NCBI GenBank assembly: GCA_964363145.1
Contig: CAYIHE010000002.1
Span: forward strand, 1 to 33,412
DNA from: an uncultured Gammaproteobacteria bacterium
Lineage (GTDB): Bacteria > Patescibacteriota > Patescibacteriia > Magasanikbacterales > GWA2-37-8
Reading direction: 5' to 3'
DNA length: 33,412 bases
Part shown: piece after piece, positions 15,702 to 33,412 of the stretch
Position numbering within the stretch: position 1 is the stretch's first letter
Layout: each line of letters begins with the position of its first letter
The notes under the pieces: generated by a model
What the model was told of the DNA's origin: nothing
The model's database searches: none
Seen by the model: only the letters and a program-made list of their open reading frames with translations
Translations under genes and position numbers: made by a program

Positions 15702-16682
15702 TTATTCAAAATTTATCCGCTCTTTTTCTATCACCAAAGGCCGGCGCTTAACTTGAGCATAAATGGCTCCAATATATTCACCCAAAATGCCTATAAAAAA
15801 TAGTTGGATGGAAGAAAACAAGAAAATACCAATGGTAACCGGGGCCAAACCGGCTTGAAATCGATCCCAAAACAGAAGTTTATAAATCAAATAGACCATG
15901 CCGACCGCAAAACTGATGAGCGACATACCGAAACCGATAAAACTGGCTAAGCGCAACGGCAATTTGGAATGATTAACAAAACCAAGCATGGCTACATCGT
16001 ATAATCTGTAAAAATTATTTGAACTTTTGCCTTTTTTACGCTGGGATTGCACATAATCTATTTTGGCCATGGAAAAACCAAGCTCGCTAATTAACCCGCG
16101 TAAGTACGGATCCGGATCATCCACTACTTTTAAAGTTTCTATAACCTGTCTGTCATACAAGGCAAAACCGTTGAAATTTTTTATCTGCTCTGTTTCGGCG
16201 ATTATTTTAATTAAATTATAATATAATTTTCTCACGGCAAACATTAACGGACTTTCTTCACTTTTATTTTTAATGCCAACGACTATTTTGTAACCTTCAT
16301 CCCATTTTTTAATAAAATCTTTTATTAGACCGGGCGGATCCTGTAAATCGCAATACAACAATACCACCGCGTCCCCTTTTGTCTGGAGCATGGCGTAATA
16401 AGGAGATTTTAACTGACCAAAGTTGCGCGCGTTAACAATTATTTTTACATGTTTATCTTGCGCGGCTATTTCTTTTAGAATCGCCACGGTTTTGTCGACC
16501 GAAGCGTTGTCAATAAATATGTGCTCGTAATTATAGCCACATTCGGCCATTACTTTTTTCACTTGATTATAAACCTCGGCCGCGTTGGCTTCTTCGTTAT
16601 AGCAAGGGGTAACAATGCTAATTAGTTTATTTGCACCAGACATACGCGTGTAGTTAATTATATTTTTCAAAAAATTTCTCAA
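15702..16682 (-). CDS. polyprenyl-phosphate glycosyltransferase (GtrB/ArnC/DPM1-like GT2 with C-terminal TM hairpin)
   Basis: ISIVTPCYNEE...IFIDNASVDKT...LYCDLQDPP (DxDLQxPP hallmark) plus two C-terminal hydrophobic helices (LPLRLASFIGFGMSLISFAVGMVYLIY and APVTIGIFLFSSIQLFFIGILGEYI). The start is possibly the ATG at 16643 (MSGANK...). Confidence 0.8.
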   Translation of the reverse strand: MRNFLKNIINYTRMSGANKLISIVTPCYNEEANAAEVYNQVKKVMAECGYNYEHIFIDNASVDKTVAILKEIAAQDKHVKIIVNARNFGQLKSPYYAMLQTKGDAVVLLYCDLQDPPGLIKDFIKKWDEGYKIVVGIKNKSEESPLMFAVRKLYYNLIKIIAETEQIKNFNGFALYDRQVIETLKVVDDPDPYLRGLISELGFSMAKIDYVQSQRKKGKSSNNFYRLYDVAMLGFVNHSKLPLRLASFIGFGMSLISFAVGMVYLIYKLLFWDRFQAGLAPVTIGIFLFSSIQLFFIGILGEYIGAIYAQVKRRPLVIEKERINFE

Positions 16683-17958
16683 AGCACGACACCATATACT
16701 CTACCATTTCCGCGCTTAATCCTGGATACACCCCAATCCAAAAAGTATTGCTCATAACCATATCCGTGTTGGCTAAATCGCCGACCGCGCGATAATTTAC
16801 TTTGTTGCTGATAAAATATGGCTGTTTGGTAATATTGCCGGCAAACAAATAGCGAGTGGCTATGTTACAACCCTGCAAATACTGAATCAGCTCATCTCTA
16901 CCAAACGGAGCGCCGGCTTTGACCGTAAGCAAAAAGCCAAACCAGCTTGGATCGGCTTTTTCTTCCCATTTTGGAAGAACAAAATAATTTTCGTATTTCT
17001 TCAGACCGTCATACAAAATTTTAAAATTATCTTTGCGTTTCGCCACAAAACCTTCCAATTTTTCCAATTGAGCGACTCCCAAAGCGGCCTGCATATCGGT
17101 GGCTTTTAAATTATAGCCAATTTCCGAATAAATATATTTATGATCATAACCAAACGGCAGATCGCCTAACTTCCAACCAAATCTCATGCCGCAAGTATTA
17201 TCACTTCCGGTTTTACACCAGCAATCTCGCCCCCAATCCCGCATTGAGCGAATAATTTTGTTGAGTACGCCGTCATTGGTAAATATCGCGCCGCCTTCAC
17301 CCAAAGTAATATGATGCGCCGGATAAAAACTGCAAGTGGCAACATGGCCAAAAGTTCCCGTAAATTTACTATCGTACTTAGAACCGAGCGCGTCACAATT
17401 ATCTTCTATAAACCAAAAGTTGTTTGCCTTGCACAATTCCATGATGGCGGTTAAATCCATCGGATTGCCAAGTGTGTGCGCCAACATTATCGCTCTAGTT
17501 TTAGGTGTAATCGCTTTTTTTATTTCCTCAATATTGGCATTGTAAGTTCCCAAATCAACATCCACAAAAACCGGCGCTAGATTATTCTGCATTATAGGAT
17601 TAATGGTGCTTGGAAAACCCGCGGCTACGGTTATTACTTCGTCTCCGGGTTTTAATCTTTTTTCACCCAACTTCATGGAGGTAAGGGCGGTAAGCGCCAA
17701 CAAATTGGCCGACGACCCGGAATTAACTAAAATTGCGTGTCTGACCCCCAACCAACGGCTAATTTTGGCTTCAAATTGGCTAGTAAACCGGCCCTCGGTC
17801 CACCAACCGTCCAAAACCGCCTCTACGCCTAAAATCATCTCCTGTTCATCAAATACTTTGCCGGAAACGGGCACGGAAGATTCTCCGGGAATAAATTGTT
17901 TCTTGGAAAATTTTTCCTGATAATGCTTAATTATCTCCGCTTTTAAATTTTCTTCCAT
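16654..17958 (-). CDS. rfbH: PMP-dependent NDP-4-keto-6-deoxyhexose 3-dehydrase, E1 type (RfbH/DdhC/AscC-like) with [2Fe-2S] Cys motif
   Basis: 434 aa, DegT/DnrJ/EryC1 fold (VNSGSSANLLA, DNCDALG, GEGG). His occupies the Schiff-base Lys position (FYPAHHITLGEGG). Cys188/246/248/256 give C-X57-C-X1-C-X7-C, counted directly. RDWGRDCWC...DNTCG and GYDHKY blocks are present. Confidence 0.85.
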   Translation of the reverse strand: MEENLKAEIIKHYQEKFSKKQFIPGESSVPVSGKVFDEQEMILGVEAVLDGWWTEGRFTSQFEAKISRWLGVRHAILVNSGSSANLLALTALTSMKLGEKRLKPGDEVITVAAGFPSTINPIMQNNLAPVFVDVDLGTYNANIEEIKKAITPKTRAIMLAHTLGNPMDLTAIMELCKANNFWFIEDNCDALGSKYDSKFTGTFGHVATCSFYPAHHITLGEGGAIFTNDGVLNKIIRSMRDWGRDCWCKTGSDNTCGMRFGWKLGDLPFGYDHKYIYSEIGYNLKATDMQAALGVAQLEKLEGFVAKRKDNFKILYDGLKKYENYFVLPKWEEKADPSWFGFLLTVKAGAPFGRDELIQYLQGCNIATRYLFAGNITKQPYFISNKVNYRAVGDLANTDMVMSNTFWIGVYPGLSAEMVEYMVSCFEKFFEKYN

Positions 17959-20075: not shown

Positions 20076-20085
20076 ATTTGAAATG

Positions 20086-20268: not shown

Positions 20269-20269
20269 T

Positions 20270-21934: not shown

Positions 21935-24664
21935 TTAATTTTGGCAACCTCCGCGGCTATTTAGCAACATAGCCATATCTTCGCTGCTTGTAGCAACAAC
22001 CGCATAGTGATTTTTTATCGTTTTATTGATTCTGATATCAACAAGATCGTTGCCGAATTGAGTATAAAATTCGCTAAACGGATAAATAAATACTTTGCTG
22101 GTTTTATTGCATTTTAAAAAATCAACCGCGTAATCCGACTCACGCTTAAAAAACATTTCGGTAAAAGAAGGAATATCCAAAACCGAACGCGTATGCGACT
22201 CGCCGTAATACACGCCATCAAACCCCCCGGCCAAAATTATCACGCTCTCTCCTTCTGCGGTATTACTTTTTATAAAATCTATATTCTTTGTTAATGGTGT
22301 TTCTGATTTCTGAAAAAAAGAGTTAAGCCCAATGGACGACCATTTATAATACCCACGGCTTTTATATAAAATACTAAGCGGGGATGAAAGAATAAAAAAT
22401 ATTACCATTAAAAATAACAAGGCATGCCCGTACAATTTTGGATGAGAAACAACTATACTATATAAAATATCGGCAAAAATTGTCAATAAAATAAGGGGCA
22501 GATATAACGGCAAATAAAATGTCGCGTCGTGCGATCTGCCTTCGTAGTAACTAAACAAGCCCATACCTAAAATAGACAAAAGAAAAATAGAAGTATTTCT
22601 CCAATCACCGTCTTTAACCAGCCATTTTTTGATTGATAACAACAAACCGCTAAGAAAAACTAGCATTACCAAAATCCATACGTGAGGAAAAGGCATGGCA
22701 ATCATCATAAAACCGTCATAAAACATTTTTTGATACAGAAAAAACATGGCCAGGTTTGGAACATGACCGCTTCGTAAAAATGTATAACCGGCATAACCGG
22801 CAAAAACAACCGTCAGCGCCAGCGCGCCAAGAAAAAGATGCCGGGCGATATTTTTAATCATTATTTTTTTGTCACCGTTAAACGCTTCCGTGTAAATCAA
22901 GGCCAATATCCAAGAAACAAAAACCATAATTCCGGAATCAAAGTTCCATAAAATAGACAGGGCGCTTATGATAAATAATAAATAATAAATAATCCGGTTT
23001 CTGTTTTTAAAATAAATAGAAGAGAGAAGCAAAAGTAGGCTGGGAAAAAAAGTCCTAATCGGCCAATACTGAAAATACGGATACGGATTGGCCGAACCAT
23101 CCAATAAATAAATCGCGATCGTGCTAAATCCTAACAATAAAATTATATTATTTTTTACTAACCGGCGAAGGAAAAGAAAAATAAATAGAAAACTCAAGCT
23201 TAACAGCAAGCCCATTATTGTTGTAACAGATAAGATGTTTAAACCGATTAGCTTAAATATAGGCTCTAAAAATACAGGATACAGACCATACTGGCTGGAT
23301 AAATTTACTAACAACGTCTTACCGGCCATTACTTGTGAAATGGGATAAAAAATCGGATTGGCGTGATTAACAATATTTTGTATATCAATTAAACTGGAGG
23401 TGTTTACATTGATGACGCTTATAAAAAAAACCACTGCCATTAACAGGCCGGAAAACAAATATACTAAATTTTTAATTAAATTATCATATTTATCTTTTTT
23501 TAGTAAAAGAATAATATAAACGCCGACTGGAAATAAGACTAAGCCGTATAAATACTTGCCTACACCGCTAAGAAAAAAATTCTTTCCGGTGTACATAAAA
23601 TTACTAACCGCCAAACCGATATACGCAATTGCAAAAAGCAACAGTGGGGCGGCAATGCTGGCAATAAAATACAAACGACCAATAATTTCGTCTTTTATTT
23701 TAGAAACATAGCGACTAAATAATTTATAAAAAATAAGCAACAAAAACGGGCTTAATAAAATACTAAGTGAGAATTGCGCTCTTTCTACTGTTTTGGGTAT
23801 AAAAGACGGCAAAAACTTATCTAAATAAATTTTAGAGGCTTCCGCTAATATGTGGGCGGTGTCCGGTTTATAAAAAGACTTTATAAAAAGACATAACAAA
23901 AATAAAACGATAGAAGTGGCAATAATGCTTAAAGCAAAAACCACTAACTCTCGCTTGCTACGCAAATCCATATCCGGATCATTAACATTGGTATTTTTGC
24001 GTTTAACAATAGATAGAATGAAAAAAATTATTATTAAAACCACAACTAACAACAAAAAAGTTTTAACCGCGGAAACTATCGGTTTTTGCACCAAATACTC
24101 ACTGCCTTTAAAATTCAAGCTGGACAAAAGGCCGGAGACTAAGGGAATTTGCGTATGCCACGGCTTTACTTTCACATTATCCGGCGCTTCATACACAAAA
24201 TAACCGGGACTGCCGTTTATGTCGCTCATAAACCAGCCGCCGCTTTTTGTTTCTATTTTTTTCCACTCGGACAAAAACCGATCTTTGGTAAAAACAAAAT
24301 CTTTTTCTCCAAGTGAAATAGTGATTTTTGAAAACTGGCCAAGACTTTCACTATTCATGCCTACTAATATTTTATTTACGAAAGTTTGACTCGGATTATT
24401 CCACTCATTTTTATTTCCTTCCAATATTCTGGTTAAATTCATGGTATTGCCGGCCCGCGATAATGTTGCCAGCACTCTGATAGATGTCAGATTGACCGCG
24501 TCCAACCCGTCAACTTTTATTGACAATGGATCAAGAACAGCTCGGCTGGTAATAACCGCTATAATATTCCCCATCCAAATAACGGCAAAAATAAAAAAAC
24601 AGGACAAAATTATGGCCCCCAAGTATTTTTTTAAAAAAACAAACATCTCGCCAATCATAAACAT
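21935..24664 (-). CDS. very large polytopic membrane protein (909 aa), unknown family
   Basis: N-terminal TM anchor, a hydrophilic domain of about 160 aa (residues ~40-200), at least 16 hydrophobic helices, and a C-terminal soluble domain of about 140 aa. No recognisable motif. Confidence 0.55.
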   Translation of the reverse strand: MFMIGEMFVFLKKYLGAIILSCFFIFAVIWMGNIIAVITSRAVLDPLSIKVDGLDAVNLTSIRVLATLSRAGNTMNLTRILEGNKNEWNNPSQTFVNKILVGMNSESLGQFSKITISLGEKDFVFTKDRFLSEWKKIETKSGGWFMSDINGSPGYFVYEAPDNVKVKPWHTQIPLVSGLLSSLNFKGSEYLVQKPIVSAVKTFLLLVVVLIIIFFILSIVKRKNTNVNDPDMDLRSKRELVVFALSIIATSIVLFLLCLFIKSFYKPDTAHILAEASKIYLDKFLPSFIPKTVERAQFSLSILLSPFLLLIFYKLFSRYVSKIKDEIIGRLYFIASIAAPLLLFAIAYIGLAVSNFMYTGKNFFLSGVGKYLYGLVLFPVGVYIILLLKKDKYDNLIKNLVYLFSGLLMAVVFFISVINVNTSSLIDIQNIVNHANPIFYPISQVMAGKTLLVNLSSQYGLYPVFLEPIFKLIGLNILSVTTIMGLLLSLSFLFIFLFLRRLVKNNIILLLGFSTIAIYLLDGSANPYPYFQYWPIRTFFPSLLLLLSSIYFKNRNRIIYYLLFIISALSILWNFDSGIMVFVSWILALIYTEAFNGDKKIMIKNIARHLFLGALALTVVFAGYAGYTFLRSGHVPNLAMFFLYQKMFYDGFMMIAMPFPHVWILVMLVFLSGLLLSIKKWLVKDGDWRNTSIFLLSILGMGLFSYYEGRSHDATFYLPLYLPLILLTIFADILYSIVVSHPKLYGHALLFLMVIFFILSSPLSILYKSRGYYKWSSIGLNSFFQKSETPLTKNIDFIKSNTAEGESVIILAGGFDGVYYGESHTRSVLDIPSFTEMFFKRESDYAVDFLKCNKTSKVFIYPFSEFYTQFGNDLVDIRINKTIKNHYAVVATSSEDMAMLLNSRGGCQN

Positions 24665-24672: not shown

Positions 24673-25557
24673 TTACAGCGGTGGTTCCGCGTCTAAACTG
24701 GGCGCGGTTAACTGGTAATACTCTGTCATTTCAGCCAAAGAATCATTAAGGTTGGTAAAGGTTATTTCGCCCATTTCCGCTTTTAGTCTATCCATGTTGC
24801 AGGAGTATTCTTTGTTTAACCCCGGATTTTTTACCACAAATGCCAAATCTTTTTCGGTTGCGGATAAAACTTTTTTAGCGATAGAAACCAAATCCATTGC
24901 TTCGCCGCGACCGATGTTATAAAAAGTTTGCCGCGGTTTATTGATAATAAAATAATTTAGGATTTTGACAAAATCATTTATATACAAATAATCAAAATAG
25001 ACATTCTGATTTATGATTATTTGCATATCTGAAATCGCTCGGCAAATCGCTTCGGAAATAAACCTAATTTTATAGTCTTCGTATTTACCATACACTCCAA
25101 ACAGACGCAGGTGCGTGATAAAATCTACGTTTTCAGCGTATTTGGCCATGATGTATTTGGCCACGCCATAATGATCGGTGGGCACGCGCCGGTCGAAGTC
25201 TTCCTCTTTTATTTTTACTATGTCGCGCCGCTTGTCATATTCGGCGCCGGAGCCAAGCACGATCATTCTTTTATAATAATCTTTGCACCTTACTAAATTA
25301 AAAAACATTTGCATGTTCTTTTCCAATACCCATTCCACACCCACCCATTTTTGACTACGATTGCCGCCCACGTTGGCGGCGTGAATTACTATGTCTATAT
25401 TATTATTTTTTATATATTCAAAAACGGCATCCGCATCAGTTAAATCCAGCTCCTGGCTAAATGGGGCCAAAAAATCATGCTCGTAACTCAATATCTCCAA
25501 AATATTTCGGCCAATAAACCCACCGCCGCCGGTTAAAAAAATTCTTAATTTTTTCAT
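24673..25557 (-). CDS. extended-SDR NDP-sugar reductase/epimerase (GDP-fucose-synthase/RmlD-like)
   Basis: Start moved to the ATG at 25555-25557 (MKKLRIFLTGGGGFIGRNILE...). Shows LDLTD..AV, HAANVGG, YGVAK (YxxxK). By-eye alignment to E. coli GDP-fucose synthase suggests the epimerase Cys (GSSC) and His are replaced (GSGA; YGKYEDY), so a reductase-only role is possible. Confidence 0.65.
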   Translation of the reverse strand: MKKLRIFLTGGGGFIGRNILEILSYEHDFLAPFSQELDLTDADAVFEYIKNNNIDIVIHAANVGGNRSQKWVGVEWVLEKNMQMFFNLVRCKDYYKRMIVLGSGAEYDKRRDIVKIKEEDFDRRVPTDHYGVAKYIMAKYAENVDFITHLRLFGVYGKYEDYKIRFISEAICRAISDMQIIINQNVYFDYLYINDFVKILNYFIINKPRQTFYNIGRGEAMDLVSIAKKVLSATEKDLAFVVKNPGLNKEYSCNMDRLKAEMGEITFTNLNDSLAEMTEYYQLTAPSLDAEPPL

Positions 25558-25702: not shown

Positions 25703-25729
25703 ATGCGGGCTACGAATTTTAACCTAACT

Positions 25730-27235
25730 ATGCGAAAAATACCGGCCACCATGGCCTCACAACACCCTGATCACGCTTCCGTGCCATATTGGCATCATTC
25801 GGAATTTATTGGCGCCCAAGATGAAGCAAAGGAATGCTTTTTATCATTTTCCGATTTGGGTATTTCCGAATACAAATGGGATTGGGAAGGAAAACTGGTT
25901 GATGAATCTATTTTGGAAAGATTGCTGGGAGAACATTTGGATTTTTTCCAAAAACATCCACTGGGCTTGGACAAATTCCTCACATTCAGATTACCAAATT
26001 CCAACACAGAAACAGAATTTCGCATGAGCCGGGCCATGATGGGCATCCTTAGCGCGGCTGGCATGGCCAAACAAGTAGGTTTGCATTGTCCGCCGATTTT
26101 TGAGGTAATTCTGCCTATGGTAAAAACCGCCGAAGAAATGATTGATGCTGAAGAAGCATTTGAAGAACTAACCAACTTAAAACACCCCTTATTTAAATTA
26201 AAAAATTGCGCCCCGCATCACCTAGAAATAATTCCACTTTTTGAAAATACAGACGTAATTATTAATTCGGATAAAATAATTAAAAAATACCTTGAACTTC
26301 ATAAAACAAAATTTAAAAAAACGCCAAATTATATACGGCCATACATAGCCCGATCTGATCCTGCGCTTAATTCCGGCATAGTGCCAACCGTTATTGCCAT
26401 CAAAATCGCTTTGGCAAAATACAAAAAATGCGCCGAGGAAAACAACATTGATTTATACCCTATTCTCGGCGCCGCCTCTTTGCCTTTTCGCGGCGGCCTC
26501 ACCCCATATAACACGGAAAGTTTTATTCGCGAATATGCCGGCATAAAAACAGTTCTGTTGCAAAGCGCTTTTCGATACGATTTTCCAAAAGAAGAAGTGA
26601 TAAAATCAATAAAAATTTTTGAAGACAAACTGCAATCAAGCCAAGCCGCCGCCATGGAAGAGCCGGAAGAAAAAAAATTAATTGAACTAATCAAAACATT
26701 TGAAAATTTTTACAAACCAACGATTGAGAGTGTCGCGGATTTTATTAGCAACATCGCCCAATCCATACCCAAACGCCGCGAACGCGTCCAGCATGTGGGC
26801 ATTTTTGGCTATTCCCGCGCGGTCGGTTCCGTAAAACTTCCACGCGCCATTGGCTTTACGGCCGCATTTTATTCTCTCGGCGTGCCTCCGGAAATTATTG
26901 GCACCGGCCGAGGCATTGCCGCCGCTAAAATTAACGGATCTTTGCCGTTAATCGAGCAATATTATTTAAACCTAAAAGACGATCTAGCGCGCGCCGGCAG
27001 ATTTGTAAATAAAAAAAACCTGCAAAAACTTGCGGCTGAAAATAATGCTTGGAACGATGTCTTGGCTGACGTCGTGGCGGTGGAAGATTATTTGCAAATA
27101 GAATTAACGCCGATTTCTGATGAAGAAAAACAGCACCAAACACTCACCGAACAAATTCTAAACCAATTGGAAAAAAACGAACCCATCATAGGCCTCGTTC
27201 AATCGGCCGGCGTTCTGCGAAAAAGTTTAGGCTGA
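25730..27235 (+). CDS. ppcA: archaeal-type phosphoenolpyruvate carboxylase (PepcA family)
   Basis: MRKIPATMASQHPDH start, PIFEVILPMV, IARSDPALNSG, ILGAASLPFRGG, LQSAFRYD, LPRAIGFTAAFYSLGVPPEIIGTGRG and a C-terminal ...RKSLG. These match my recollection of PepcA blocks (for example Clostridium perfringens PepcA MKIPCSMMTQHPDN ... RGSIG). Confidence 0.85.
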   Translation: MRKIPATMASQHPDHASVPYWHHSEFIGAQDEAKECFLSFSDLGISEYKWDWEGKLVDESILERLLGEHLDFFQKHPLGLDKFLTFRLPNSNTETEFRMSRAMMGILSAAGMAKQVGLHCPPIFEVILPMVKTAEEMIDAEEAFEELTNLKHPLFKLKNCAPHHLEIIPLFENTDVIINSDKIIKKYLELHKTKFKKTPNYIRPYIARSDPALNSGIVPTVIAIKIALAKYKKCAEENNIDLYPILGAASLPFRGGLTPYNTESFIREYAGIKTVLLQSAFRYDFPKEEVIKSIKIFEDKLQSSQAAAMEEPEEKKLIELIKTFENFYKPTIESVADFISNIAQSIPKRRERVQHVGIFGYSRAVGSVKLPRAIGFTAAFYSLGVPPEIIGTGRGIAAAKINGSLPLIEQYYLNLKDDLARAGRFVNKKNLQKLAAENNAWNDVLADVVAVEDYLQIELTPISDEEKQHQTLTEQILNQLEKNEPIIGLVQSAGVLRKSLG

Positions 27236-29005
27236 CATATTTTCGGCCAACTCATCTTTATCTAAATACGGAAACATGTCTTCGTACGGTTTGGAAACCA
27301 ATTTTCCCTCGGCGTTTTTTTCCGATGCAACGCGCGGTACTATCAATTGCCACTCCGGCGTCATAATGTCGCAAATTACCGGACCGTTAAAATCTAAAAC
27401 TTCTTTTATTTTTCTGTCAACTTCACTGGCTTTGGATATGCGCACGCCTTTAATGCCATACGCTTTAGCAATGGCCAGCGAATCCGGGCACCAAACTCCC
27501 GACTCTGGACCTTCGCCCAACAAACGGCCTTCCATAAAATTCTTCTGGGTATGCCGGATAAGTAAATAACCGTTGTTATTGAAAATAAAAACCTTAATAG
27601 GCAAGTTATTGTGTTTGATGGTGGCAAATTCCTGAATATTCATCTGTAAACTGCCGTCACCGGTAATAATAAACGTTCTTTGGCGGTTATTGGCCGCGCA
27701 CGCGCCGATTCCGGCTACCCAATACCCCATTGAGGATAGTCCTCCCGTGGTAAGAAAACGCTGCCCTTTTTTTATTTTCCATGTTTGACAAGCGACGTGA
27801 AAACATGAACCGGTGTCTACCAAGACCATATCGCCGGATTCGGACAATTCGGACAACCTGTCGGTAAAGTAATACGAATTAACCGGATTTTCTTTTTTAT
27901 AAGCGGGTAAAGCAACCGGATATTTTCTTTTCCACTCCTGGCATTTTTTTAACCAGGCGCTAAAATCAAACGGCTTCGCGTTTTTTAATTTATCTGACAA
28001 TAATTTAAAAAATACTTTTGCATCTGCTAAAATTTTTAATTCAATTTCAATTGTCGGTTTGTCTAATTCCAGCCGATCTATATCCACAACAACTTTTTTA
28101 GCGTTTCTGGCAAAATCTTGGGCATTATGGCCGATTAAAGATGTAGTTAAACGACAACCAACCGCTATTAATAAATCGGAATTCTGAATCGCAAAATGGG
28201 CGGCTCTTTCGCCGTAAGTGCCGGGACGTCCCACATAAAGATCATTGTCGCTTTCGATTAAATCTATGCCGAGCCGGGAAGTTAATACGGGAATTTTTAA
28301 TTTAGAGATGGCTTCGCCAAATTCTTTAGTAGCATGCGCCAATCTTACTCCCTGCCCAACAAGCAAAACGGGTCTTTTAGCGCTAGATAATAATTCAATC
28401 ATTTTTTCTATTTGTTCCACAACAGCTGTTTCCGATTTTACTTCTACGGGAAACTTAAAATCAGAAGAAATATTTTCCGGAACCTCCGCTCTTTGTATGT
28501 CTAACGGCACATCAATCCAAACCGGACCGGGCCGGCCACTCGTCGCTAAAAAATAAGCGGTTTCCAAATAAGTTAATATCTTGGCCGGATCATCCACGGT
28601 GATAAAATACTTGGCAACTTTTTCTACCAGCGGTTTGATGTTTATGCCTTGAACGCCAAACTGCCTGATGCCGGTTTGCTCCTGATACTGCACATTAGCC
28701 AAATTTGACTGTCCGGAAATAACAATCATCGGCGCTGAATCAGTCCAGCCACCTACTACGCCATTGATAACATTTACCGCGCCCGGACCGGCCGTAACCA
28801 GCGCCACCGCCGGTTTGCCGGCAATTCGCCCATACGCGTCGGCTGACATGCCGGCGGATTGTTCGTGATGCGTGCAGGTAACGTGAAATTTACCGCTTCG
28901 GTAAATAGCGTCAATTAAATACATGGCCTGCCCGCCGGAAACCATAAAAACTTCATCTGTGCCTTTTTCCGCTAAAAATTTAAAAATATAATCGGCAACG
29001 TTCAT
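27227..29005 (-). CDS. thiamine-diphosphate-dependent enzyme, acetolactate-synthase large-subunit-like (function open; YerE-like carboligase is one possibility)
   Basis: About 592 aa from the ATG at 29003-29005 (MNVADYIFKFLAEKGTDEVFMVSGG...). The track start at 29017 is a TTG. Shows the N-terminal Pyr domain (HEQSAGMSADAYGR, TAGPGAVN) and the C-terminal ThDP motif GDGSLQMNIQE...NN. Its 3' end overlaps ppcA by 9 nt (convergent). Confidence 0.8.
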   Translation of the reverse strand: MNVADYIFKFLAEKGTDEVFMVSGGQAMYLIDAIYRSGKFHVTCTHHEQSAGMSADAYGRIAGKPAVALVTAGPGAVNVINGVVGGWTDSAPMIVISGQSNLANVQYQEQTGIRQFGVQGINIKPLVEKVAKYFITVDDPAKILTYLETAYFLATSGRPGPVWIDVPLDIQRAEVPENISSDFKFPVEVKSETAVVEQIEKMIELLSSAKRPVLLVGQGVRLAHATKEFGEAISKLKIPVLTSRLGIDLIESDNDLYVGRPGTYGERAAHFAIQNSDLLIAVGCRLTTSLIGHNAQDFARNAKKVVVDIDRLELDKPTIEIELKILADAKVFFKLLSDKLKNAKPFDFSAWLKKCQEWKRKYPVALPAYKKENPVNSYYFTDRLSELSESGDMVLVDTGSCFHVACQTWKIKKGQRFLTTGGLSSMGYWVAGIGACAANNRQRTFIITGDGSLQMNIQEFATIKHNNLPIKVFIFNNNGYLLIRHTQKNFMEGRLLGEGPESGVWCPDSLAIAKAYGIKGVRISKASEVDRKIKEVLDFNGPVICDIMTPEWQLIVPRVASEKNAEGKLVSKPYEDMFPYLDKDELAENMSA

Positions 29006-29036
29006 ATTCAAATACAAGTAATTAAAATTATTTTTA

Positions 29037-30041
29037 CTATTTTTTCTTAGATAATTCTATGGCCGCTTCGTTAATCATATCTTCCTGGCCGCCGACAATT
29101 TTTCTCTTCCCCACCTCCACATAAATATCCCGGGCGTCAATACCGTATTTTTCCGCCGCTCGTTTTATAGGCAAAGCGTAAACTGAAAAAACTCCGGTTA
29201 AACCGCCCATCAGGCCGATTGTGTCTATTTCTTGCGGCTTCGTCATTATTTTTGTAACAATGCCTTCGCTCACGTCCATTAATTTGTATAAATCAATCCC
29301 GGTGGCGAAGTTCATTTTTTGTAAAACCGTTACCATGGCTTCAAGCTGGCAATTACCCGCGCCGGCGCCAAATCCGCGCAAAGTGCCGTCTATAATCGTC
29401 GCACCGCTATCGATAGCAACAAGCGAATTGCCCACCGCCATCCCCAAATTGTTGTGAGCGTGAAAACCGACCGGAATGGACAAATTATCTACCAGATGTT
29501 TAATGGTTTCCGAAACCATAGACGGGATAGATGCTCCGGCCGAGTCCATTATTATTATACCGCGCGCGCCATAAGATTGCATCTTTAATGCTTCTTCCAG
29601 CAATCTTTCTTTGGTGGTCATGTGATACATCATTAAAACTCCATGCACTTCTTTGTTTGCGGAAGCCAGATACTTTATATATTGCTGGGTGGTATCGGCT
29701 TCAGTGCAATGCGCGGCCACGCACACCAAATCAACCCCCAATTTAAGCGCCGGCTCCAAATCATCGGCAATGGTGGCAAATCCGGGAATCATAAAAATTC
29801 CCAGACGCGTTTTTTTCAAAGCTTTTCTGGCTATAGCAATAGTGTCTAAATCATTTACTTCCGAAAATCCCACCTGATGCGATGAGGCGCCAATGCCATT
29901 GCCATGGCCAACGATGACCGTGTACAAACCGGCGCCATCTATACTTTCACAGTATTCGCGAATTTGCTCGGCGCTGATTTTGTGTGAAACGGCATGCGAT
30001 CCGTCGCGCAAAGTAGAATCAAAAAATTTAACGTCATTCAT
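29037..30041 (-). CDS. dmpG: 4-hydroxy-2-oxovalerate aldolase
   Basis: DSTLRDGSHA, AAHCTEAD, HAHNNLGMAVGNS, GFGAGAGNCQLE and VGGQEDMI are colinear with Pseudomonas DmpG blocks. 334 aa. Confidence 0.85.
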   Translation of the reverse strand: MNDVKFFDSTLRDGSHAVSHKISAEQIREYCESIDGAGLYTVIVGHGNGIGASSHQVGFSEVNDLDTIAIARKALKKTRLGIFMIPGFATIADDLEPALKLGVDLVCVAAHCTEADTTQQYIKYLASANKEVHGVLMMYHMTTKERLLEEALKMQSYGARGIIIMDSAGASIPSMVSETIKHLVDNLSIPVGFHAHNNLGMAVGNSLVAIDSGATIIDGTLRGFGAGAGNCQLEAMVTVLQKMNFATGIDLYKLMDVSEGIVTKIMTKPQEIDTIGLMGGLTGVFSVYALPIKRAAEKYGIDARDIYVEVGKRKIVGGQEDMINEAAIELSKKK

Positions 30042-30921
30042 ATTTTCTTTTTTCTAAAATTGTTTTAGCGTAATCTTCGGCTACCCGCACTGCCGCGCAA
30101 GTAATAATATCCAAATTTCCGGCATACGCCGGCAAAAAGTCCCCGCTACCCACCACTTGCACGGTAATAGCTACTCGCCCTTTTTCCACTATCGGCCCAT
30201 AGGTAACTTGATAGCCGGGAACATATCCTCGGATTAGTTCGGCCATTTTATCAATTTTTTCTTTAAGCAATTCAATGTTGGGGTTAGGGATACTAGCGTA
30301 AATAGTGTTATGCATTAAAACGGGTGGTTCAGCCGGATTGAAAACTAAAATAACTTTCGCCTTTTGCACGCCGGAAAATTGTTCCAGAGCGCGCTTGGTG
30401 GTTAGCATATACTCTTCAATATTCGCGCGAGTTCCGGAACCGGCGGATTTTGAGGCGATGCTTCCCACGATTTCAATATAGGTTGTGTCCGGATGAGTGT
30501 CCATAATAACTTTGGCCAGAGGCACGCACGCTTGTCCGCCGCAAGTAACCAAATTAACATTTTGCGCAGAAAGCGCCTTATCAATATTCAGAACCGGAAT
30601 GCACATCGTGCCAATTCGCGAAGGCGTTAAATCAATAACAAATTTTCCCAATTGCTTTAAAATGGGGGCGTGAACAAGGTGGTTTTGGGCCGAAGTGGCG
30701 TCAAAAACTATTTCACAACAACTAGGGTCGCGCTCAATCGCCGCGATAGAATCCGCGGAAGTGGGAACGCCAAGTTCTTGGGCTCTTTTAATACCTTCGG
30801 ATTCTAAATTTCGACCGGTAAATAATCCGCACTCCAAAACAGCGGATTTTTGAATCTTTAAAAGCAAATCACTACCAATATTGCCCGTGCCGATTATGGC
30901 GACTTTTAGCTTATTTTGCAT
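30034..30921 (-). CDS. dmpF: acetaldehyde dehydrogenase (acetylating)
   Basis: Start set at the ATG 30919-30921 (MQNKLKVAIIGTGNIGSDLLLK; compare DmpF MNQKLKVAIIGSGNIGTDLMIK). Catalytic Cys block NVNLVTCGGQACVP, then SKSAGSGTRANI and LPAYAGNLDI. The track N-terminal extension to 30996 is rejected. Confidence 0.85.
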   Translation of the reverse strand: MQNKLKVAIIGTGNIGSDLLLKIQKSAVLECGLFTGRNLESEGIKRAQELGVPTSADSIAAIERDPSCCEIVFDATSAQNHLVHAPILKQLGKFVIDLTPSRIGTMCIPVLNIDKALSAQNVNLVTCGGQACVPLAKVIMDTHPDTTYIEIVGSIASKSAGSGTRANIEEYMLTTKRALEQFSGVQKAKVILVFNPAEPPVLMHNTIYASIPNPNIELLKEKIDKMAELIRGYVPGYQVTYGPIVEKGRVAITVQVVGSGDFLPAYAGNLDIITCAAVRVAEDYAKTILEKRKYE

Positions 30922-30925
30922 ACAA

Positions 30926-30962
30926 AGTGAGAGAAATGAAAACTTGTTTTCTTTTCCGAGCG
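30926..30962 (-). promoter_or_regulatory. conserved leader module, copy B (11-mer / hairpin / 11-mer) upstream of dmpF
   Basis: The minus strand reads CGCTCGGAAAA, GAAAAC-AA-GTTTTC, (A)TTTCTCTCACT, 4 nt, then ATG. It shares both 11-mers and the basal GAAA/TTTC stem with 20086-20126. Confidence 0.45.
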
Positions 30963-31017: not shown

Positions 31018-31046
31018 AATATATCATTTTTCCCTAAAAAAATCAA
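31018..31046 (-). promoter_or_regulatory. candidate promoter of the dmpF-dmpG-ThDP operon
   Basis: The minus strand has TTGATT (31046-31041), 17 nt, TATATT (31023-31018). It lies about 5 nt from the left end of the IS. The AT-rich context makes this tentative. Confidence 0.3.
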
Positions 31047-31062
31047 GTAACCCTGGGTAGAG

Positions 31063-31085
31063 AGCGTCCTAATCCGAGGTTGCTA
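31063..31085. repeat. IS left inverted repeat
   Basis: AGCGTCCTAATCCGAGGTTGCTA. The reverse complement of 32337-32359 is AGCGTCCTAACTCCAGGTTGCTA, a 20/23 match. Confidence 0.7.
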
Positions 31086-31130
31086 TCAAATCCATACTTC
31101 CTCTAAGCCTAGCGTCAAATTGAACAATTA

Positions 31131-32327
31131 ATGTATAGTACCTGCGTTAATAACTTTTTATACACATTTTTATGCCCAAAAAAAAGAGTGCTACGCTGTC
31201 CGAAATGTAATTCTTTAGACACCAAAAGGTACAGAAAACGTTTTGTGGCGGCGTTGTCCAAAACGGTTCTGCGCATCGCCTGTAAGACGTGTGGTTTTGT
31301 CGGACCAGTTCGCTCCATCTCCGGTGTTCGAGCCAGCGAAGAATTGTGTCAAACAATCATGCGGGAGAGTTTAGAAAGAGCCTCAATGCGCATCCTCGCT
31401 CGCCGGTATCACAAGACACGCGATACCATAATGCGCATAATACATCGTGTCTGTGAAGCCTTGCCGGATAGTATTAGCCTGGCTAAAAAACTTCAACCGC
31501 TATGGTCTGGTATTCTTGTTTTCGACGGCAAGGTGATCAGGGTCTATGACAAGGTGACGGAAAAACTTGACCCCCAATATTTAACCGAGGACGAAAGGAG
31601 ATGGATTCACAAAATGCGCTGGCTCTGCGGCGTCGACTATGGCACCGGCGATCTGCCCCACTATGATCTCGGGGAGTCGGAGAATATGGTTGATTTGGTT
31701 TTGTATTTCAAAAATCTAAAGTCCCTAAAATACCCGTTAATTGCTATAGTTTGCGATGGAAATCCGCTCATACCAAGAGCGGCCAGATTTGTGTTTGGCA
31801 AGCAGATTATTGTCCAGCGGTGTACCCGCCATTTTTTAGAAGATTTAAGAAAACTTTTGCCGACCGAAGAGGACAGAAAAGCAGAAAGGATACAATTGGA
31901 ACAGTTAATTCTGAGAATTAAATCGGTAATTGAAACGGACACGCTGGAGTCAGCCCAATACCATTTAGAATCATTAAAAAGATTTTCCGATTCCATTACC
32001 GGACCGCTTAAACAATCTATGCTGAATATGTTCAAAAGAACAAAAGTCGAGTTGACCGCCCACTTGCTTTATCCCGAACTCAAACTGCCGCATACTTCCA
32101 ACGACATTGAAAATCTTTTCAAACAGCTGATGCAGAGATTAAAAACCATTGGCCGATTTTTTCATCAGACCTACGCCAAAAATTATTTAAGCGCATGGGC
32201 ATTGCTCAGACGGTTCACTCCTTTTACCGATTGCCGAAAAGGAAGAAGGCACCGAAACAAAAAATCCCCGCTGGAATTAGCGGGGTGTGAAATACAGAAT
32301 ATTGATCCGATGAAATTAAAAAGATAG
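31131..32327 (+). CDS. putative DDE-type transposase with N-terminal zinc ribbon and HTH
   Basis: CPKC...CKTC ribbon, an HTH-like SMRILARRYHKTRDTIMRIIHRV, candidate catalytic blocks LVFDGK and AIVCDGNPLIPRAARFVFGKQIIVQRCTRHF, and HTSNDIENLFKQLMQRLK resembling IS256/ISL3/IS1-type cores. Family not assigned. The start is uncertain (see the A8 finding). Confidence 0.6.
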   Translation: MYSTCVNNFLYTFLCPKKRVLRCPKCNSLDTKRYRKRFVAALSKTVLRIACKTCGFVGPVRSISGVRASEELCQTIMRESLERASMRILARRYHKTRDTIMRIIHRVCEALPDSISLAKKLQPLWSGILVFDGKVIRVYDKVTEKLDPQYLTEDERRWIHKMRWLCGVDYGTGDLPHYDLGESENMVDLVLYFKNLKSLKYPLIAIVCDGNPLIPRAARFVFGKQIIVQRCTRHFLEDLRKLLPTEEDRKAERIQLEQLILRIKSVIETDTLESAQYHLESLKRFSDSITGPLKQSMLNMFKRTKVELTAHLLYPELKLPHTSNDIENLFKQLMQRLKTIGRFFHQTYAKNYLSAWALLRRFTPFTDCRKGRRHRNKKSPLELAGCEIQNIDPMKLKR

Positions 32328-32336
32328 CAACCCGAT

Positions 32337-32359
32337 TAGCAACCTGGAGTTAGGACGCT
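32337..32359. repeat. IS right inverted repeat
   Basis: TAGCAACCTGGAGTTAGGACGCT. It is preceded by a second TAGCAACC copy at 32325-32332. Confidence 0.7.
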
Positions 32360-32392
32360 ATCAGGGCCTTGGCAGGGACATTGACGCAGACT

Positions 32393-33025
32393 CTACTTCG
32401 ACGGGTTGGCAATATGCTCGTGATCAATCACGTTTCCTTGATCATCAAACAATATCCGCCACGCTTCACCCTTTTCCAAATACGGCACCCGACCGCTTTC
32501 CTTCTGTAGTTCCCGAAGAGACGGCAAAGGCTGACCGGGGTTCAATAGTTGCCACATGGCGAAAGCTGTTGGGTCGCCGTGGCTAACCACAAAAATAGTC
32601 TTGCCACTATGTTTCCTCACCACACCGCTTATCGCCGCCACCATTCTGGCCGTAAAGCTGGGCGGTCTTTCGATGCGCCAGTTTGCCAGCTCCGGATGAG
32701 TATGTGGATCAACAATTTCGGCCAGCCAAACAAGAGACTTGCCGAACATGTCTGGTGAATTCGGATCTTGCAAACGCGGATCAGTCTCAATTGGCATGTT
32801 CAGTTCCGGGTAGTTACCCCTGATTTCGGCAGATGACTGCACTGCCCGCAAAAAATCACTGCTGACAATCGCATCCGGTACGATACCACGATCACGCAGA
32901 ATTCGGCCAAGAACGCGCATTTCCATTTTCCCCAAATTACTCAAGGAGATGGTCCCGTCGTAAATAGTGCCTTGCGGGTTTTCCAATCTCCCGTGGCGGG
33001 CAAGAATAACAGTGGTCTGCGGCAT
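32393..33025 (-). CDS. histidine phosphatase family protein (phosphoglycerate-mutase-like)
   Basis: VILARHGRLENPQG (RHG catalytic motif) and FVVSHGDP (second His). 210 aa. Confidence 0.8.
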   Translation of the reverse strand: MPQTTVILARHGRLENPQGTIYDGTISLSNLGKMEMRVLGRILRDRGIVPDAIVSSDFLRAVQSSAEIRGNYPELNMPIETDPRLQDPNSPDMFGKSLVWLAEIVDPHTHPELANWRIERPPSFTARMVAAISGVVRKHSGKTIFVVSHGDPTAFAMWQLLNPGQPLPSLRELQKESGRVPYLEKGEAWRILFDDQGNVIDHEHIANPSK

Positions 33026-33031: not shown

Positions 33032-33412
33032 TCAACTTAATAATTTTTTAATGGCTTCCGCCACAGCAACCGCGGATAAACCGGCTTGCGCGCGCATAAA
33101 ATCCTGCTTACCAATGTATGGTAAATATTTATCTTCCACACCCAACCGGCGAAACGGAATCGATATTCCCTCCTCGGCCAACACTTCCGCCACAGCTGAA
33201 CCCAATCCGCCATTTATGGTATGCTCTTCCAGAGTGACTATGGCGACGCGCGTATGAGCGCGGTCTATAATTATATTTTTATCCAACGGTTTAAGCGTGT
33301 GCAAATGAACCACCTCCGCCTCAATCCCCCCCTGTTCCAACAGTGCGGCCACCGCGAGCGCCACCTCGGTAATAGCGCCAATGGAAAAAATAGCCACTTT
33401 TGAACCATGTTT
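33032..33412 (-). CDS. transketolase / 2-oxoacid dehydrogenase E1-beta type C-terminal domain protein; 5' end beyond the window
   Basis: The frame stays open to the window edge (KHGSKVAIFSIGAITEVALAVAALLEQGGIEAEVVHLHTLKPLDKNII...TLEEHTINGGLGSAV). This is a typical transketolase C-terminal domain. The track Met is an internal GTG. Confidence 0.8.
   Translation of the reverse strand, partial: KHGSKVAIFSIGAITEVALAVAALLEQGGIEAEVVHLHTLKPLDKNIIIDRAHTRVAIVTLEEHTINGGLGSAVAEVLAEEGISIPFRRLGVEDKYLPYIGKQDFMRAQAGLSAVAVAEAIKKLLS

Follow-up and report, generated by a model that had tools for sequence, protein, structure and literature searches.

Why do an acylating acetaldehyde dehydrogenase and a pyruvate aldolase of the DmpF and DmpG type stand in one cassette with a ThDP-dependent enzyme, next to a deoxysugar locus? 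In the window, the whole stretch of 33,412 nucleotides that was analysed, all three genes lie on the minus strand where the sequence-only reading had put them, and coordinates, Pfam domains and NCBIfam scores bear out both their presence and their placement. The DmpF/BphJ-like dehydrogenase (30034..30921) reaches 368 bits with TIGR03215 (cutoff 282), carries the Pfam domain AcetDehyd-dimer and starts at an ATG at 30921-30919, the mechanical ORF beginning farther upstream at a TTG. Its gene overlaps by 8 nt, the aldolase ATG lying over the dehydrogenase stop, with that of a DmpG/BphI-like class II pyruvate aldolase (29037..30041; TIGR03217, 370 bits, cutoff 286; DmpG communication domain, DmpG_comm). 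From the aldolase stop to the ThDP gene (27227..29005) the gap is exactly 31 nt, as had been described. Pfam and NCBIfam scans of the window ORFs found no hydratase and no ring-cleavage or meta-cleavage gene, in agreement with the earlier account, and no ilvN/H (ACT-domain small subunit) or other ilv gene, which had been named as signs of branched-chain amino-acid synthesis. Most likely, the trio builds a four-carbon keto-acid and attaches it to a 3,6-dideoxy sugar destined for a surface glycan. With good confidence, we assign the three genes to an erwiniose-type pathway for an acyl-branched deoxysugar, in which they would supply and attach the side chain.

A different answer places the cassette in central carbon metabolism. 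The dehydrogenase and aldolase would then serve energy or acetyl-CoA supply by cleaving or forming 4-hydroxy-2-oxovalerate, and the ThDP enzyme would be a pyruvate-using acetolactate synthase, acting alongside the PEP carboxylase, phosphatase and transketolase encoded nearby. Both proteins of the pair pass the cutoffs of catabolic-family equivalogs, and acetolactate-synthase models are the best NCBIfam matches of the ThDP enzyme (592 aa counted from its ATG, with all three TPP-enzyme Pfam domains). However, these models all score far under their cutoffs (TIGR00118, 380 against 538), and the missing small-subunit, ilv, hydratase and ring-cleavage genes also speak against such a role. Among solved structures, the best score is that of JanthE (8rph) with 415 bits, plant AHAS reaching 272, and the JanthE alignment is full length, C-terminal tail included. 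Identity in the tree alignment is ~37% to JanthE and 28-32% to IlvI/IlvB, and by tblastn ~31% to plasmid-borne ilvB/ilvG. The phylogenetic placement that had been proposed was run by neighbour joining: the enzyme stands apart from IlvB/IlvI/Gcl/PoxB/Oxc at 100/100 bootstrap, in a tight clade at 92/100. An acetolactate-synthase identity, which had been named as evidence against a sugar role, is contradicted by the NCBIfam cutoffs and this split. As judged from these comparisons, the enzyme groups with JanthE, a characterised YerE-like ketone-accepting carboligase and its closest characterised and solved relative, not with acetolactate synthases. The structure 5ahk, which we take to be PpYerE, scores 254 bits, no better than plant AHAS, so 'YerE-like' is a functional label rather than the name of one clean clade.

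The genomic setting of related cassettes was examined in a genome scan, among the best 80 species loci listed (ThDP identity at least 59%, more than 10 phyla). Wherever at least 2 kb of upstream sequence was available (68 of the 80), the dehydrogenase-aldolase pair lies upstream of the ThDP gene in the same order (68/68), within 500 nt of it in 66 loci, and the dehydrogenase is directly upstream of the aldolase in 66/68. The trio sits within an NDP-deoxysugar locus in every one of these 68, where unrelated contexts would have counted against a glycan role. Co-occurrence with RfbH genes had been suggested as a check: 45 loci reach 6 kb or more in both directions, and 42 of them have an RfbH gene near the cassette, 36 a nucleotidyltransferase and 40 a 4,6-dehydratase. 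The cultured species Clostridium gasigenes has a cytidylyltransferase, a CDP-glucose 4,6-dehydratase and an RfbH, each above its equivalog cutoff, and in the sister lineage Brevinema (48% identity) the gene order is identical. At 85% and 78% identity, the closest relatives have an unbroken series of the ThDP gene, an SDR gene, a gene for a 916-aa protein, RfbH and four GT2 genes, colinear with the window. In more than 10 phyla the trio keeps company with NDP-sugar genes, which speaks against a place in central metabolism.

The neighbours that had been cited for a metabolic role are better read against the same relatives. The PEP carboxylase adjoining the cassette is a bona fide archaeal-type enzyme (TIGR02751, 484 bits), which favours that role, yet none of the 88 related loci scanned has its gene, which here lies as an antisense insertion between those for the ThDP enzyme and the SDR and breaks an otherwise contiguous junction. 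An inserted IS element and a histidine-phosphatase gene lie between the cassette and the upstream transketolase genes. The 3' part of a gene for a split-transketolase C-terminal subunit, TK/DXS-like by NCBIfam (33032..33412, minus strand), is cut by the window end and is 69% identical to the corresponding subunit of relative L009. In close relatives L003, L009 and L011, the operon runs nucleotidyltransferase, 4,6-dehydratase, TKN, TKC and DmpF, with the C-terminal transketolase gene immediately preceding the dehydrogenase gene in the same sugar operon. In L061, a more distant relative, the sugar cluster includes a histidine phosphatase 76% identical to that of the window. By comparison with these gene orders, the operon in this contig is rearranged, and expression may have suffered from the IS element and the antisense PEP carboxylase gene. 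The central-metabolism explanation is already close to refuted, and we give it hardly any credence.

A precedent for the whole module was published in 2022 as the erwiniose route of Pectobacterium atrosepticum, which comprises the acetaldehyde dehydrogenase ErwJ (BphJ-like), the pyruvate aldolase ErwI (BphI-like), the ThDP carboligase ErwE and the reductase ErwF (PMC9306805). The sequence-only reading had set sugar branching beside central metabolism. Its sugar-branching part is supported by the deoxysugar loci, the RfbH counts and the JanthE-like ThDP enzyme, and its surmise that the pair supplies a longer 2-oxoacid donor was right in substance, whereas the suggested novelty of the route falls to the published one. 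By function, likened through the published descriptions, the window's dehydrogenase, aldolase, ThDP enzyme and SDR match the ErwJ/ErwI/ErwE/ErwF scheme, and we propose by analogy that the first three are counterparts of ErwJ, ErwI and ErwE. The Pectobacterium gene order, as implied by consecutive accession numbers, differs from that of the window, and ErwE is neither among the best 120 matches of either search nor among the best 80 genome loci. Pectobacterium is a plant pathogen, and an erwiniose-type route would now extend to an uncultivated groundwater-type bacterium.

The active sites of the pair fit this scheme. The dehydrogenase matches the acetaldehyde-specific NCBIfam equivalog and retains the catalytic Cys in the motif TCGGQA (alignments to 7z3s and 4lrs). 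The aldolase keeps R17, D18, H21, H200 and H202 (DmpG numbering) and has Phe at both Y291 and L88. Among 74 sugar-cluster aldolase homologues, the position of BphI Tyr290 is Phe in all, and that of BphI Leu87 is always F, Y or H. The chain-length gate Leu89 remains bulky (Ile or Leu) across the aldolases compared, which fits a short aldehyde. Engineered BphI variants L87W/Y290F and L87N/Y290F are (4R)-specific (PMC3962088); the Phe and the aromatic residue of the cassette aldolases reproduce this pattern, which also agrees with the donor of ErwE. These two substitutions suggest that the aldolase product is probably the (4R) isomer of 4-hydroxy-2-oxopentanoate.

Would the ThDP enzyme use this product, or pyruvate itself? 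In a yersiniose-type reaction, pyruvate would be the donor of an acetyl branch and the pair would act elsewhere, for example in later extension of the branch or in pyruvate supply. JanthE takes pyruvate among other donors, and the founding member, YerE, uses it with the same acceptor (PMC9306805). ErwE, however, which works with the same partners, accepted 4-hydroxy-2-oxopentanoate and rejected pyruvate, giving a (1R,4R) product, and a 'branch first, aldol later' order was tested in the same study and rejected (PMC9306805). The strict linkage of the pair in 68/68 loci likewise argues that its product is the donor. Pyruvate is the nucleophile in class II pyruvate aldolases, and an acetyl group already on a sugar would not be lengthened by such enzymes. 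Two-carbon branching is accordingly very unlikely.

A probable acceptor is suggested by the gene at 16654..17958 (minus strand), which had been recognised as an E1-type dehydrase and is confirmed as an RfbH/DdhC-type CDP-6-deoxy-4-hexulose 3-dehydrase by a score of 693 bits against equivalog NF011936 (cutoff 423), the cysteine motif C188-x57-C246-x-C248-x7-C256, and the motif SFYPAHH, in which His replaces the Schiff-base Lys of aminotransferases. From these features we propose that it makes the 3,6-dideoxy-4-keto acceptor. When the window and 88 loci were scanned with a crude motif search, no gene turned up for an E3 (AscD/DdhD-type) reductase as electron supply of the E1 dehydrase, which tells against the scheme. 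A GMD-like 4,6-dehydratase (17970-18941) was assigned by NCBIfam; a cytidylyltransferase and a CDP-type 4,6-dehydratase are not within the window and, by analogy, would lie further upstream, outside it. The same chemistry could give a sugar other than erwiniose itself if the donor were another short 4-hydroxy-2-oxoacid (e.g. from propanal or glycolaldehyde), if the acceptor were a 4-keto-6-deoxyhexose keeping its 3-OH, or if the sugar were also C-methylated. RfbH is missing from loci L001, L020 and L034, so the acceptor may vary; a TylC3-type C-methyltransferase (20270-21523, by Pfam) is present in the window and also adjoins the cassette in L001, L006, L025 and L061. The variation at BphI Leu87 points the same way, as does the finding that ErwE also took C4 and C6 hydroxy-keto-acids (PMC9306805). 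Against this stand the acetaldehyde-specific dehydrogenase, the bulky gate residue, and RfbH in the window and most loci, and we consider a different product unlikely.

In the erwiniose-type pathway that we favour, the dehydrogenase would run reductively, converting acetyl-CoA and NAD(P)H to acetaldehyde, which would be handed to the aldolase and joined with pyruvate to give 4-hydroxy-2-oxopentanoate. The ThDP enzyme would decarboxylate this to a C4 acyl-anion equivalent and add it at the carbonyl (C-4) of an NDP-4-keto-3,6-dideoxyhexose. This acceptor, probably a CDP sugar, would be supplied by RfbH together with a cytidylyltransferase and a 4,6-dehydratase. An extended-SDR reductase (24673..25557, minus strand; 294 aa from Met66 of the mechanical ORF; Pfam Epimerase) would then reduce the side-chain ketone, and glycosyltransferases of the locus would carry the branched sugar into a surface glycan. 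This SDR is 68% identical to an SDR of L006, the closest relative, where its gene abuts that of the ThDP enzyme; an SDR gene likewise follows the ThDP gene in L001, L003, L005, L008, L056 and L095, and in L004 it lies two genes downstream. By analogy it is a candidate side-chain ketoreductase, the counterpart of ErwF/YerF. Between the SDR and RfbH genes lies a conserved neighbour in Patescibacteria relatives, a polytopic membrane protein of 909 aa (21935..24664, minus strand) with roughly 15 hydrophobic stretches (overlapping windows merged) and no match in Pfam or NCBIfam. Homologues scoring 1292-1410 bits occupy the same position in L003, L006, L010 and L011, and we infer that it is possibly a transferase or polymerase using the branched sugar.

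The leader said to be shared by the cassette and the deoxysugar unit proved real and strain-specific. The bipartite motif CGCTCGGAAAA-N(14/19)-TTTCTCTCAC matches the window at exactly two places, and 100 shuffles gave no match; both places are just 5' of a start codon on the minus strand: a CGCTCGGAAAA-hairpin-TTTCTCTCAC element directly 5' of the dehydrogenase ATG (30927..30962), and a second copy (20087-20126) 5' of a 133-aa gene at 19674-20075. The region 20076-20275 folds at z = -6.2, with a 13-bp hairpin between both boxes. The motif was not found in the 96 related loci fetched, which makes it weak evidence for a conserved regulon. A consensus scan also gave a promoter-like site, by consensus match only (TTGATT-17-TATATT with a TG extension; 31018..31046, minus strand), located just within the IS boundary and ~100 nt 5' of the start of the dehydrogenase gene; a similar stretch, 'aaaatgatata(a)t', lies upstream of the dehydrogenase gene of L006.

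The three genes share the minus strand and run in one direction; the coordinates and description that the sequence-only reading had given them are borne out by ORF listing and HMM searches. The acylating acetaldehyde dehydrogenase (30921-30034) scores 368 bits against a cutoff of 282 (TIGR03215), and the 4-hydroxy-2-oxovalerate aldolase (30041-29037) scores 370 bits against 286 (TIGR03217), with 83 bits to DmpG_comm. They are followed by a three-domain ThDP enzyme (29005-27227) of 592 aa from its ATG, identical to P0001 of our ThDP homologue search. The aldolase and dehydrogenase genes overlap by 8 nt, and 31 nt lie between the aldolase stop and the ThDP start; start codons were placed by homologue lengths and alignments, the raw ORFs beginning further upstream. 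Neither Pfam nor NCBIfam detected a hydratase, a ring-cleavage enzyme, an ACT-domain small subunit or an ilv gene among the window's ORFs, in agreement with the earlier remark that the trio stands without hydratase or ring-cleavage genes.

The large subunit of acetolactate synthase (IlvB/IlvI/IlvG) belongs to the same three-domain ThDP fold family as the third enzyme and supplies its best curated-HMM matches. Pfam TPP_enzyme_N, M and C are all present, and the catalytic Glu (E48) and the GDG...NN motif (G449-D450-G451, N476-N478) are invariant across an alignment of 20 ThDP enzymes. However, the window enzyme is only 28-32% identical to these synthases, lies below every equivalog cutoff and has no regulatory small subunit. 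The acetolactate synthase models of NCBIfam all score far under cutoff (380 vs 538 for the best, TIGR00118; 250-360 vs 509-1084 for the others), as do those for glyoxylate carboligase, sulfoacetaldehyde acetyltransferase and AlsS. Plasmid-borne true ilvB/ilvG genes, the only matches that tblastn against plasmids returned, are ~31% identical to it. The true ilvB genes fetched for comparison are followed by ilvN or ilvH, and window scans found neither IlvH/IlvN nor any other ilv gene.

Among solved structures the best match is 8rph (JanthE), at 415 bits and ~37% identity over residues 5-594, an alignment that takes in a C-terminal tail lying outside the AHAS matches; the best AHAS, from a plant, reaches 272 bits. 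A further structure, 5ahk, which we take to be the YerE homologue PpYerE, scores 254 bits, no better than AHAS. By sequence, then, the window enzyme is closer to a ketone-accepting YerE-like enzyme than to AHAS, and this holds for JanthE only, not for 5ahk. JanthE, from Janthinobacterium sp. HH01 (8rph, 8rpi, 8rpj), is a characterised YerE-like ThDP carboligase that couples 2-oxoacids to ketones and is promiscuous for donors, pyruvate included; its ThDP motif is CDG, whereas the window protein has the canonical GDG (T448-G-D-G-S). A neighbour-joining tree was built from ten members of the window's clade, 30 representatives of related 50%-identity clusters, JanthE and six reference enzymes, of which IlvB, IlvI, Gcl, PoxB and Oxc are from E. 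coli and a second IlvB is from B. subtilis. In this tree the window clade, JanthE and the cluster representatives together split from all six reference enzymes in 100/100 bootstraps, and the window's own clade is monophyletic in 92/100. This clade is tight, and JanthE falls outside it. An exhaustive search of 1.84 billion representatives shows a gap around the clade: its members keep at least 59% identity to one another in different phyla, whereas the nearest 50%-identity clusters come no higher than 48%.

A published pathway combines these enzyme types. In the O-antigen cluster of Pectobacterium atrosepticum, the AHAS-like ThDP enzyme ErwE, the NAD(P)H reductase ErwF, the BphI-like aldolase ErwI and the BphJ-like acetaldehyde dehydrogenase ErwJ are encoded next to the genes for CDP-4-keto-3,6-dideoxyglucose (Steitz et al., 2022, PMC9306805). 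On a ketone that stands in for the sugar, ErwE uses 4-hydroxy-2-oxopentanoate and not pyruvate, giving a (1R,4R) product, and the deduced order of erwiniose synthesis is conversion of acetyl-CoA to acetaldehyde (ErwJ), aldol addition with pyruvate (ErwI), branching (ErwE) and reduction (ErwF) (PMC9306805). Since the same four enzyme types and an E1 dehydrase occur in the window, we infer from homology and gene context the scheme assigned to the Erw proteins. The DmpF-like dehydrogenase, the counterpart of ErwJ, would form acetaldehyde from acetyl-CoA; the DmpG-like aldolase (ErwI) would join it to pyruvate to give the hydroxy-keto-acid donor 4-hydroxy-2-oxopentanoate; the ThDP enzyme (ErwE) would graft this donor onto the 4-keto sugar; and the short-chain reductase (SDR) encoded at 24673-25557 (ErwF) would act last. 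Of the two roles offered by the sequence-only reading, central metabolism and sugar branching, the latter was essentially right; its suggestion of a new route does not stand, as the erwiniose scheme is already published (PMC9306805).

The likeness to the Erw module of P. atrosepticum SCRI1043, in which the four enzyme types likewise lie together in a CDP-3,6-dideoxyhexose locus, is one of enzyme type and of predicted logic. ErwE (WP_011093010) was not among the best 120 matches of two protein searches, the 80 genome loci or the cluster look-ups, and no Pectobacterium entry was among the ten nearest 50%-cluster representatives. A profile search from eight ThDP homologues of Gammaproteobacteria/Pseudomonadota returned only environmental and Clostridial members. 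The gene order is J-I-E-F in the window, whereas the consecutive accessions of Pectobacterium (WP_011093010 to WP_011093013) give E, F, J, I. The hosts also differ, the present module occurring in Patescibacteria, Omnitrophota, Elusimicrobiota, Clostridia, Planctomycetota, Lentisphaerota and others. It was found without a linked E3 reductase gene, and in some relatives its operon contains a split transketolase. For the window enzyme, a working in the manner of ErwE is supported as a predicted likeness of function. In the yersiniose A pathway of Yersinia pseudotuberculosis, YerE, as would the window enzyme, receives its acceptor from an E1 dehydrase and carries out ThDP-dependent branching of CDP-4-keto-3,6-dideoxy-D-glucose at C-4, after which YerF reduces the side chain. 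YerE, however, uses pyruvate (a C2 branch) and has no aldolase and dehydrogenase partners, whereas the window enzyme has both.

The aldolase and dehydrogenase share with the catabolic DmpFG, BphIJ and HsaFG complexes the passing of equivalog cutoffs, the gene overlap and the communication domain. The catalytic Arg/Asp/His/His/His set of the aldolase is kept (R17, D18, H21, H200 and H202 in DmpG numbering), and the catalytic Cys of the dehydrogenase, in TCGGQA, aligns with that of solved enzymes. In contrast, the hydratase and ring-cleavage context of the catabolic complexes is missing for the window pair, which probably works in the synthetic direction. The four solved catabolic aldolases have Leu and Tyr at BphI positions 87 and 290 (8ih7, 1nvm, 4lrs, and 4jn6, the last without a residue-by-residue display), whereas the window aldolase has Phe at both (DmpG Leu88 and Tyr291). 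Among 74 aldolases of related sugar loci, the BphI-290 position is Phe in all, the BphI-87 position is Phe in 46, Tyr in 26 and His in 2, and the position of BphI Leu89 stays Ile or Leu. Tyr290 and Leu87 lie on either side of C4 of the BphI substrate; stereocontrol is lost in the Y290F variant, and the double variants L87W/Y290F and L87N/Y290F are specific for the (4R) enantiomer (PMC3962088). The Phe/aromatic pair in 74/74, taken with this engineering result, therefore suggests that the sugar-cluster aldolases carry the pattern expected for making the (4R) acid, the enantiomer preferred by ErwE and the configuration present in erwiniose (PMC9306805). Because the (4S)-enforcing Tyr290/Leu87 pair is absent and there is no hydratase, the aldolase is, as judged from its residues, a sugar-pathway variant of the DmpG/BphI family and not a catabolic enzyme. 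The Phe/aromatic signature is a new, if modest, lead.

The gene context in relatives was drawn from a genome scan with one genome per species, from which the best 80 loci with a close ThDP homologue were taken. These span Patescibacteria of several classes, Omnitrophota, Elusimicrobiota, Firestonebacteria, Goldbacteria, Planctomycetota, Lentisphaerota, Verrucomicrobiota, Fibrobacter, Melainabacteria-type Gastranaerophilales, Desulfobacterota, Gammaproteobacteria MAGs and many Clostridia, the last with the cultured carriers Clostridium gasigenes DSM 12272 and Lachnotalea glycerini DSM 28816. The window's proteins were searched against all ORFs of the related loci, and counts were limited to loci with enough flank. 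Wherever 2 kb or more was available upstream (68 loci), the ThDP gene is preceded by the dehydrogenase and aldolase genes in unchanged order, at a distance of no more than 500 nt in 66 cases. This co-encoding, which marks the ErwE subtype, is also seen in the adjacent, overlapping genes of the window and in Brevinema sp. (48% identity), which represents the sister lineage and has the same gene order. Where at least 6 kb was available on both sides (n=45), the trio is accompanied by a 4,6-dehydratase in 40 loci and a nucleotidyltransferase in 36; an RfbH/E1 homologue, whose co-occurrence the sequence-only reading had proposed to test, is present in 42/45.

In Pfam-annotated loci of Patescibacteria, Planctomycetota, Omnitrophota and Clostridia the compact unit reads nucleotidyltransferase, 4,6-dehydratase, (E1), dehydrogenase, aldolase, ThDP enzyme, SDR, (E1). 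The equivalogs in C. gasigenes are a glucose-1-phosphate cytidylyltransferase (333 vs a cutoff of 300), a CDP-glucose 4,6-dehydratase (512 vs 278) and RfbH (613 vs 423). SDR neighbours were taken from the Pfam-annotated loci only, phmmer having missed an SDR that Pfam detects in the C. gasigenes locus (L056). The window's own SDR is a Pfam match, and together with RfbH it gives the cassette the keto-deoxyhexose cluster and reductase of a YerE-type context.

The E1-type 3-dehydrase at 16654-17958 was correctly named in the sequence-only reading. Its RfbH equivalog score is 693 bits against a cutoff of 423 (NF011936), a His replaces the Schiff-base (PLP) lysine in SFYPAHH, and four cysteines from C188 to C256 form the motif C-x57-C-x-C-x7-C. 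We take this motif, kept in 54/56 members of the RfbH family, to be the E1 iron-sulfur site known from the Yersinia enzyme. A crude motif search for an E3-type (AscD/DdhD) reductase partner found no ORF with a plant-type 2Fe-2S site and RxYS motif in the window or in 88 related loci, and the window has no ferredoxin-reductase Pfam match. The missing linked E3 is likewise a modest new lead.

The route itself, then, is already known, and the window trio is a member of a large, phylogenetically scattered clade. A more tentative proposal is that the tight clade marks a widely transferred, self-contained branched-sugar module whose product is chemically undescribed in these organisms. If so, the module would consist of cytidylyltransferase, 4,6-dehydratase, E1, dehydrogenase, aldolase, ThDP carboligase and reductase, and its product would be a C4-branched 3,6-dideoxyhexose carried by the surface glycans of Patescibacteria and perhaps, in some Clostridia, by flagellin. 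The aldolases would then be natural (4R)-selective counterparts of engineered BphI L87W/Y290F, the E1 would work without a dedicated E3, and in some lineages a further type of ThDP-dependent branch would come from the split transketolase encoded in this operon. If the genes are read as an acyl-branched sugar module, many Patescibacteria, Omnitrophota, Elusimicrobiota and Clostridia should display an unusual branched dideoxyhexose at the cell surface. For biocatalysis, the clade offers a large natural set of predicted ErwE-type carboligases, whose partner aldolases carry BphI-type substitutions of the (4R)-conferring kind. The names that pipelines give these genes (acetolactate synthase, meta-cleavage enzymes) mislead metabolic reconstructions of small-genome uncultivated bacteria.

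Some loci show further variation. In C. gasigenes DSM 12272 (L056, 15037-19070) the seven-gene module adjoins flagellin, flagellar rod and M-ring genes, an arrangement resembling a flagellin-glycosylation island, and a flagellin gene is also near in a Lachnospiraceae MAG (L047, 14435-15751). A general link to flagellin glycosylation was rejected, as a flagellin gene lies near the cassette only in these two. Five loci (L023, L024, L026, L027 and L084) encode another ThDP paralogue less than 10 kb from the main gene, more distantly related and scoring ~465-540 bits against the window protein, and these organisms may make two different branched sugars. In a Roizmanbacteria locus (L096, 5810-10672) a YerE-like enzyme (44% identical) and an SDR have as neighbours, in place of the aldolase/dehydrogenase pair, a NeuB-type synthase and a HAD phosphatase, which may be another way to a 2-oxoacid donor, from PEP and an aldehyde; a NeuB-cupin gene also lies at the end of locus L001. 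Among ThDP relatives of 790-950 aa no aldolase fusion was found. At 36-46% identity, fused domains occur in P0124, P0126, P0132 and P0182 (N-terminal, ~250 aa) and in P0151, P0202 and P0269; P0132 and P0182 have a weak cupin match, the extensions of P0124 and P0126 have no Pfam match, and the remaining domains are HAD hydrolase, radical-SAM/SPASM and methyltransferase, all, like cupin, typical sugar-tailoring activities.

The window is a rearranged copy of the arrangement in its closest relatives, Patescibacteria H51-bin093 from Hainich groundwater (85% identity) and Magasanikbacteria (78%). Their order is nucleotidyltransferase, 4,6-dehydratase, split transketolase (N, C), dehydrogenase, aldolase, ThDP enzyme, SDR, a 916-aa membrane protein, RfbH, four GT2 genes, a 321-aa protein and an FkbM methyltransferase. 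From the dehydrogenase to the methyltransferase at 11557-12255 the window is colinear with them, apart from three changes. Inserted antisense between the ThDP and SDR genes is a complete archaeal-type PEP carboxylase gene (25703-27235, plus strand; TIGR02751, 484 bits), its stop overlapping the ThDP stop by 9 nt; no PEP carboxylase was found in the 88 related loci scanned, and no flanking repeats were seen in the window. The window SDR, which starts at Met66 (25557), is 68% identical to that of the relative, which abuts the ThDP gene. An IS element (31060-32362) with 26-nt imperfect terminal inverted repeats (31060-31085 and 32337-32362) lies between the histidine-phosphatase gene and the cassette's promoter-like site; it encodes a 398-aa IS256-like transposase with weak IS256 and ISL3-HTH matches, and no clear target-site duplication was seen at its ends. 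The histidine phosphatase (branch 1; 32393-33025, minus strand) stands between the dehydrogenase gene and a remnant of the transketolase C-terminal subunit (33032-33412, minus strand), which is 69% identical to the relative's and runs to the window edge. The cytidylyltransferase and CDP-type dehydratase are not inside the window and would, by analogy with these relatives, lie beyond its right end.

This synteny bears on the alternative that the cassette serves central metabolism, handling acetaldehyde, pyruvate and acetyl-CoA, for which the nearby PEP carboxylase, histidine phosphatase and transketolase had been cited. In close relatives the transketolase belongs to the sugar operon; a homologue of the phosphatase lies in the sugar cluster of one more distant relative; and the PEP carboxylase is a lineage-specific insertion, which rules it out as a pathway member. 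The central-metabolism reading accordingly falls away in favour of sugar branching. The window phosphatase is 76% identical to a gene between SDR and RfbH in a Parcubacteria locus (L061, 13622-14302), and seems to be an occasional member of sugar clusters. A split transketolase/DXS-like pair was observed in the same sugar operon at L003 (6374-8097), L009 (2344-4180), L011, L025, L046, L049 and L081. According to a 2025 review, every split transketolase with a predicted role in keto-sugar branching is so far from Streptomycetes (PMC12247030); those in glycan loci of Patescibacteria and other groups may form a second branching system that depends on ThDP, and their presence in the same operon is a third new lead of modest weight.

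The leader that the cassette was said to share with the deoxysugar unit is real as sequence. It consists of CGCTCGGAAAA, a hairpin-capable spacer of 14 or 19 nt and TTTCTCTCAC, and occurs in exactly two copies (30927-30962 and 20087-20126). Both lie on the minus strand, a few nt ahead of a start codon, and 100 shuffles gave 0 matches. The region 20076-20275 is strongly structured (z = -6.2), and no Rfam family matches anywhere in the window. A conserved regulon does not follow, as the motif is missing from all 96 loci, relatives at 85% identity included. Because of this absence, and because the two gene blocks behind the window's leader copies are adjacent in the closest relatives, the leader is probably a strain-specific duplication linked to the rearrangement; it could give common control of both units in this organism.

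A stretch at 17970-21872 (minus strand) encodes a GMD-like 4,6-dehydratase, a 230-aa SDR, a 133-aa protein, a TylC3-type sugar C-methyltransferase and a WbuC-like cupin. The dehydratase (17970-18941) reaches 384 bits, just below the cutoff of 415, and with the C-methyltransferase and cupin probably forms a second, GDP-linked deoxysugar branch; the gene set suggests a C-methylated 6-deoxyhexose in the same glycan. Between the C-methyltransferase and 133-aa genes lie direct repeats of 47 nt (20112-20158 and 20222-20268), 91% identical and 110 nt apart, and a GT11 fucosyltransferase-like gene is found at 6514-7365.
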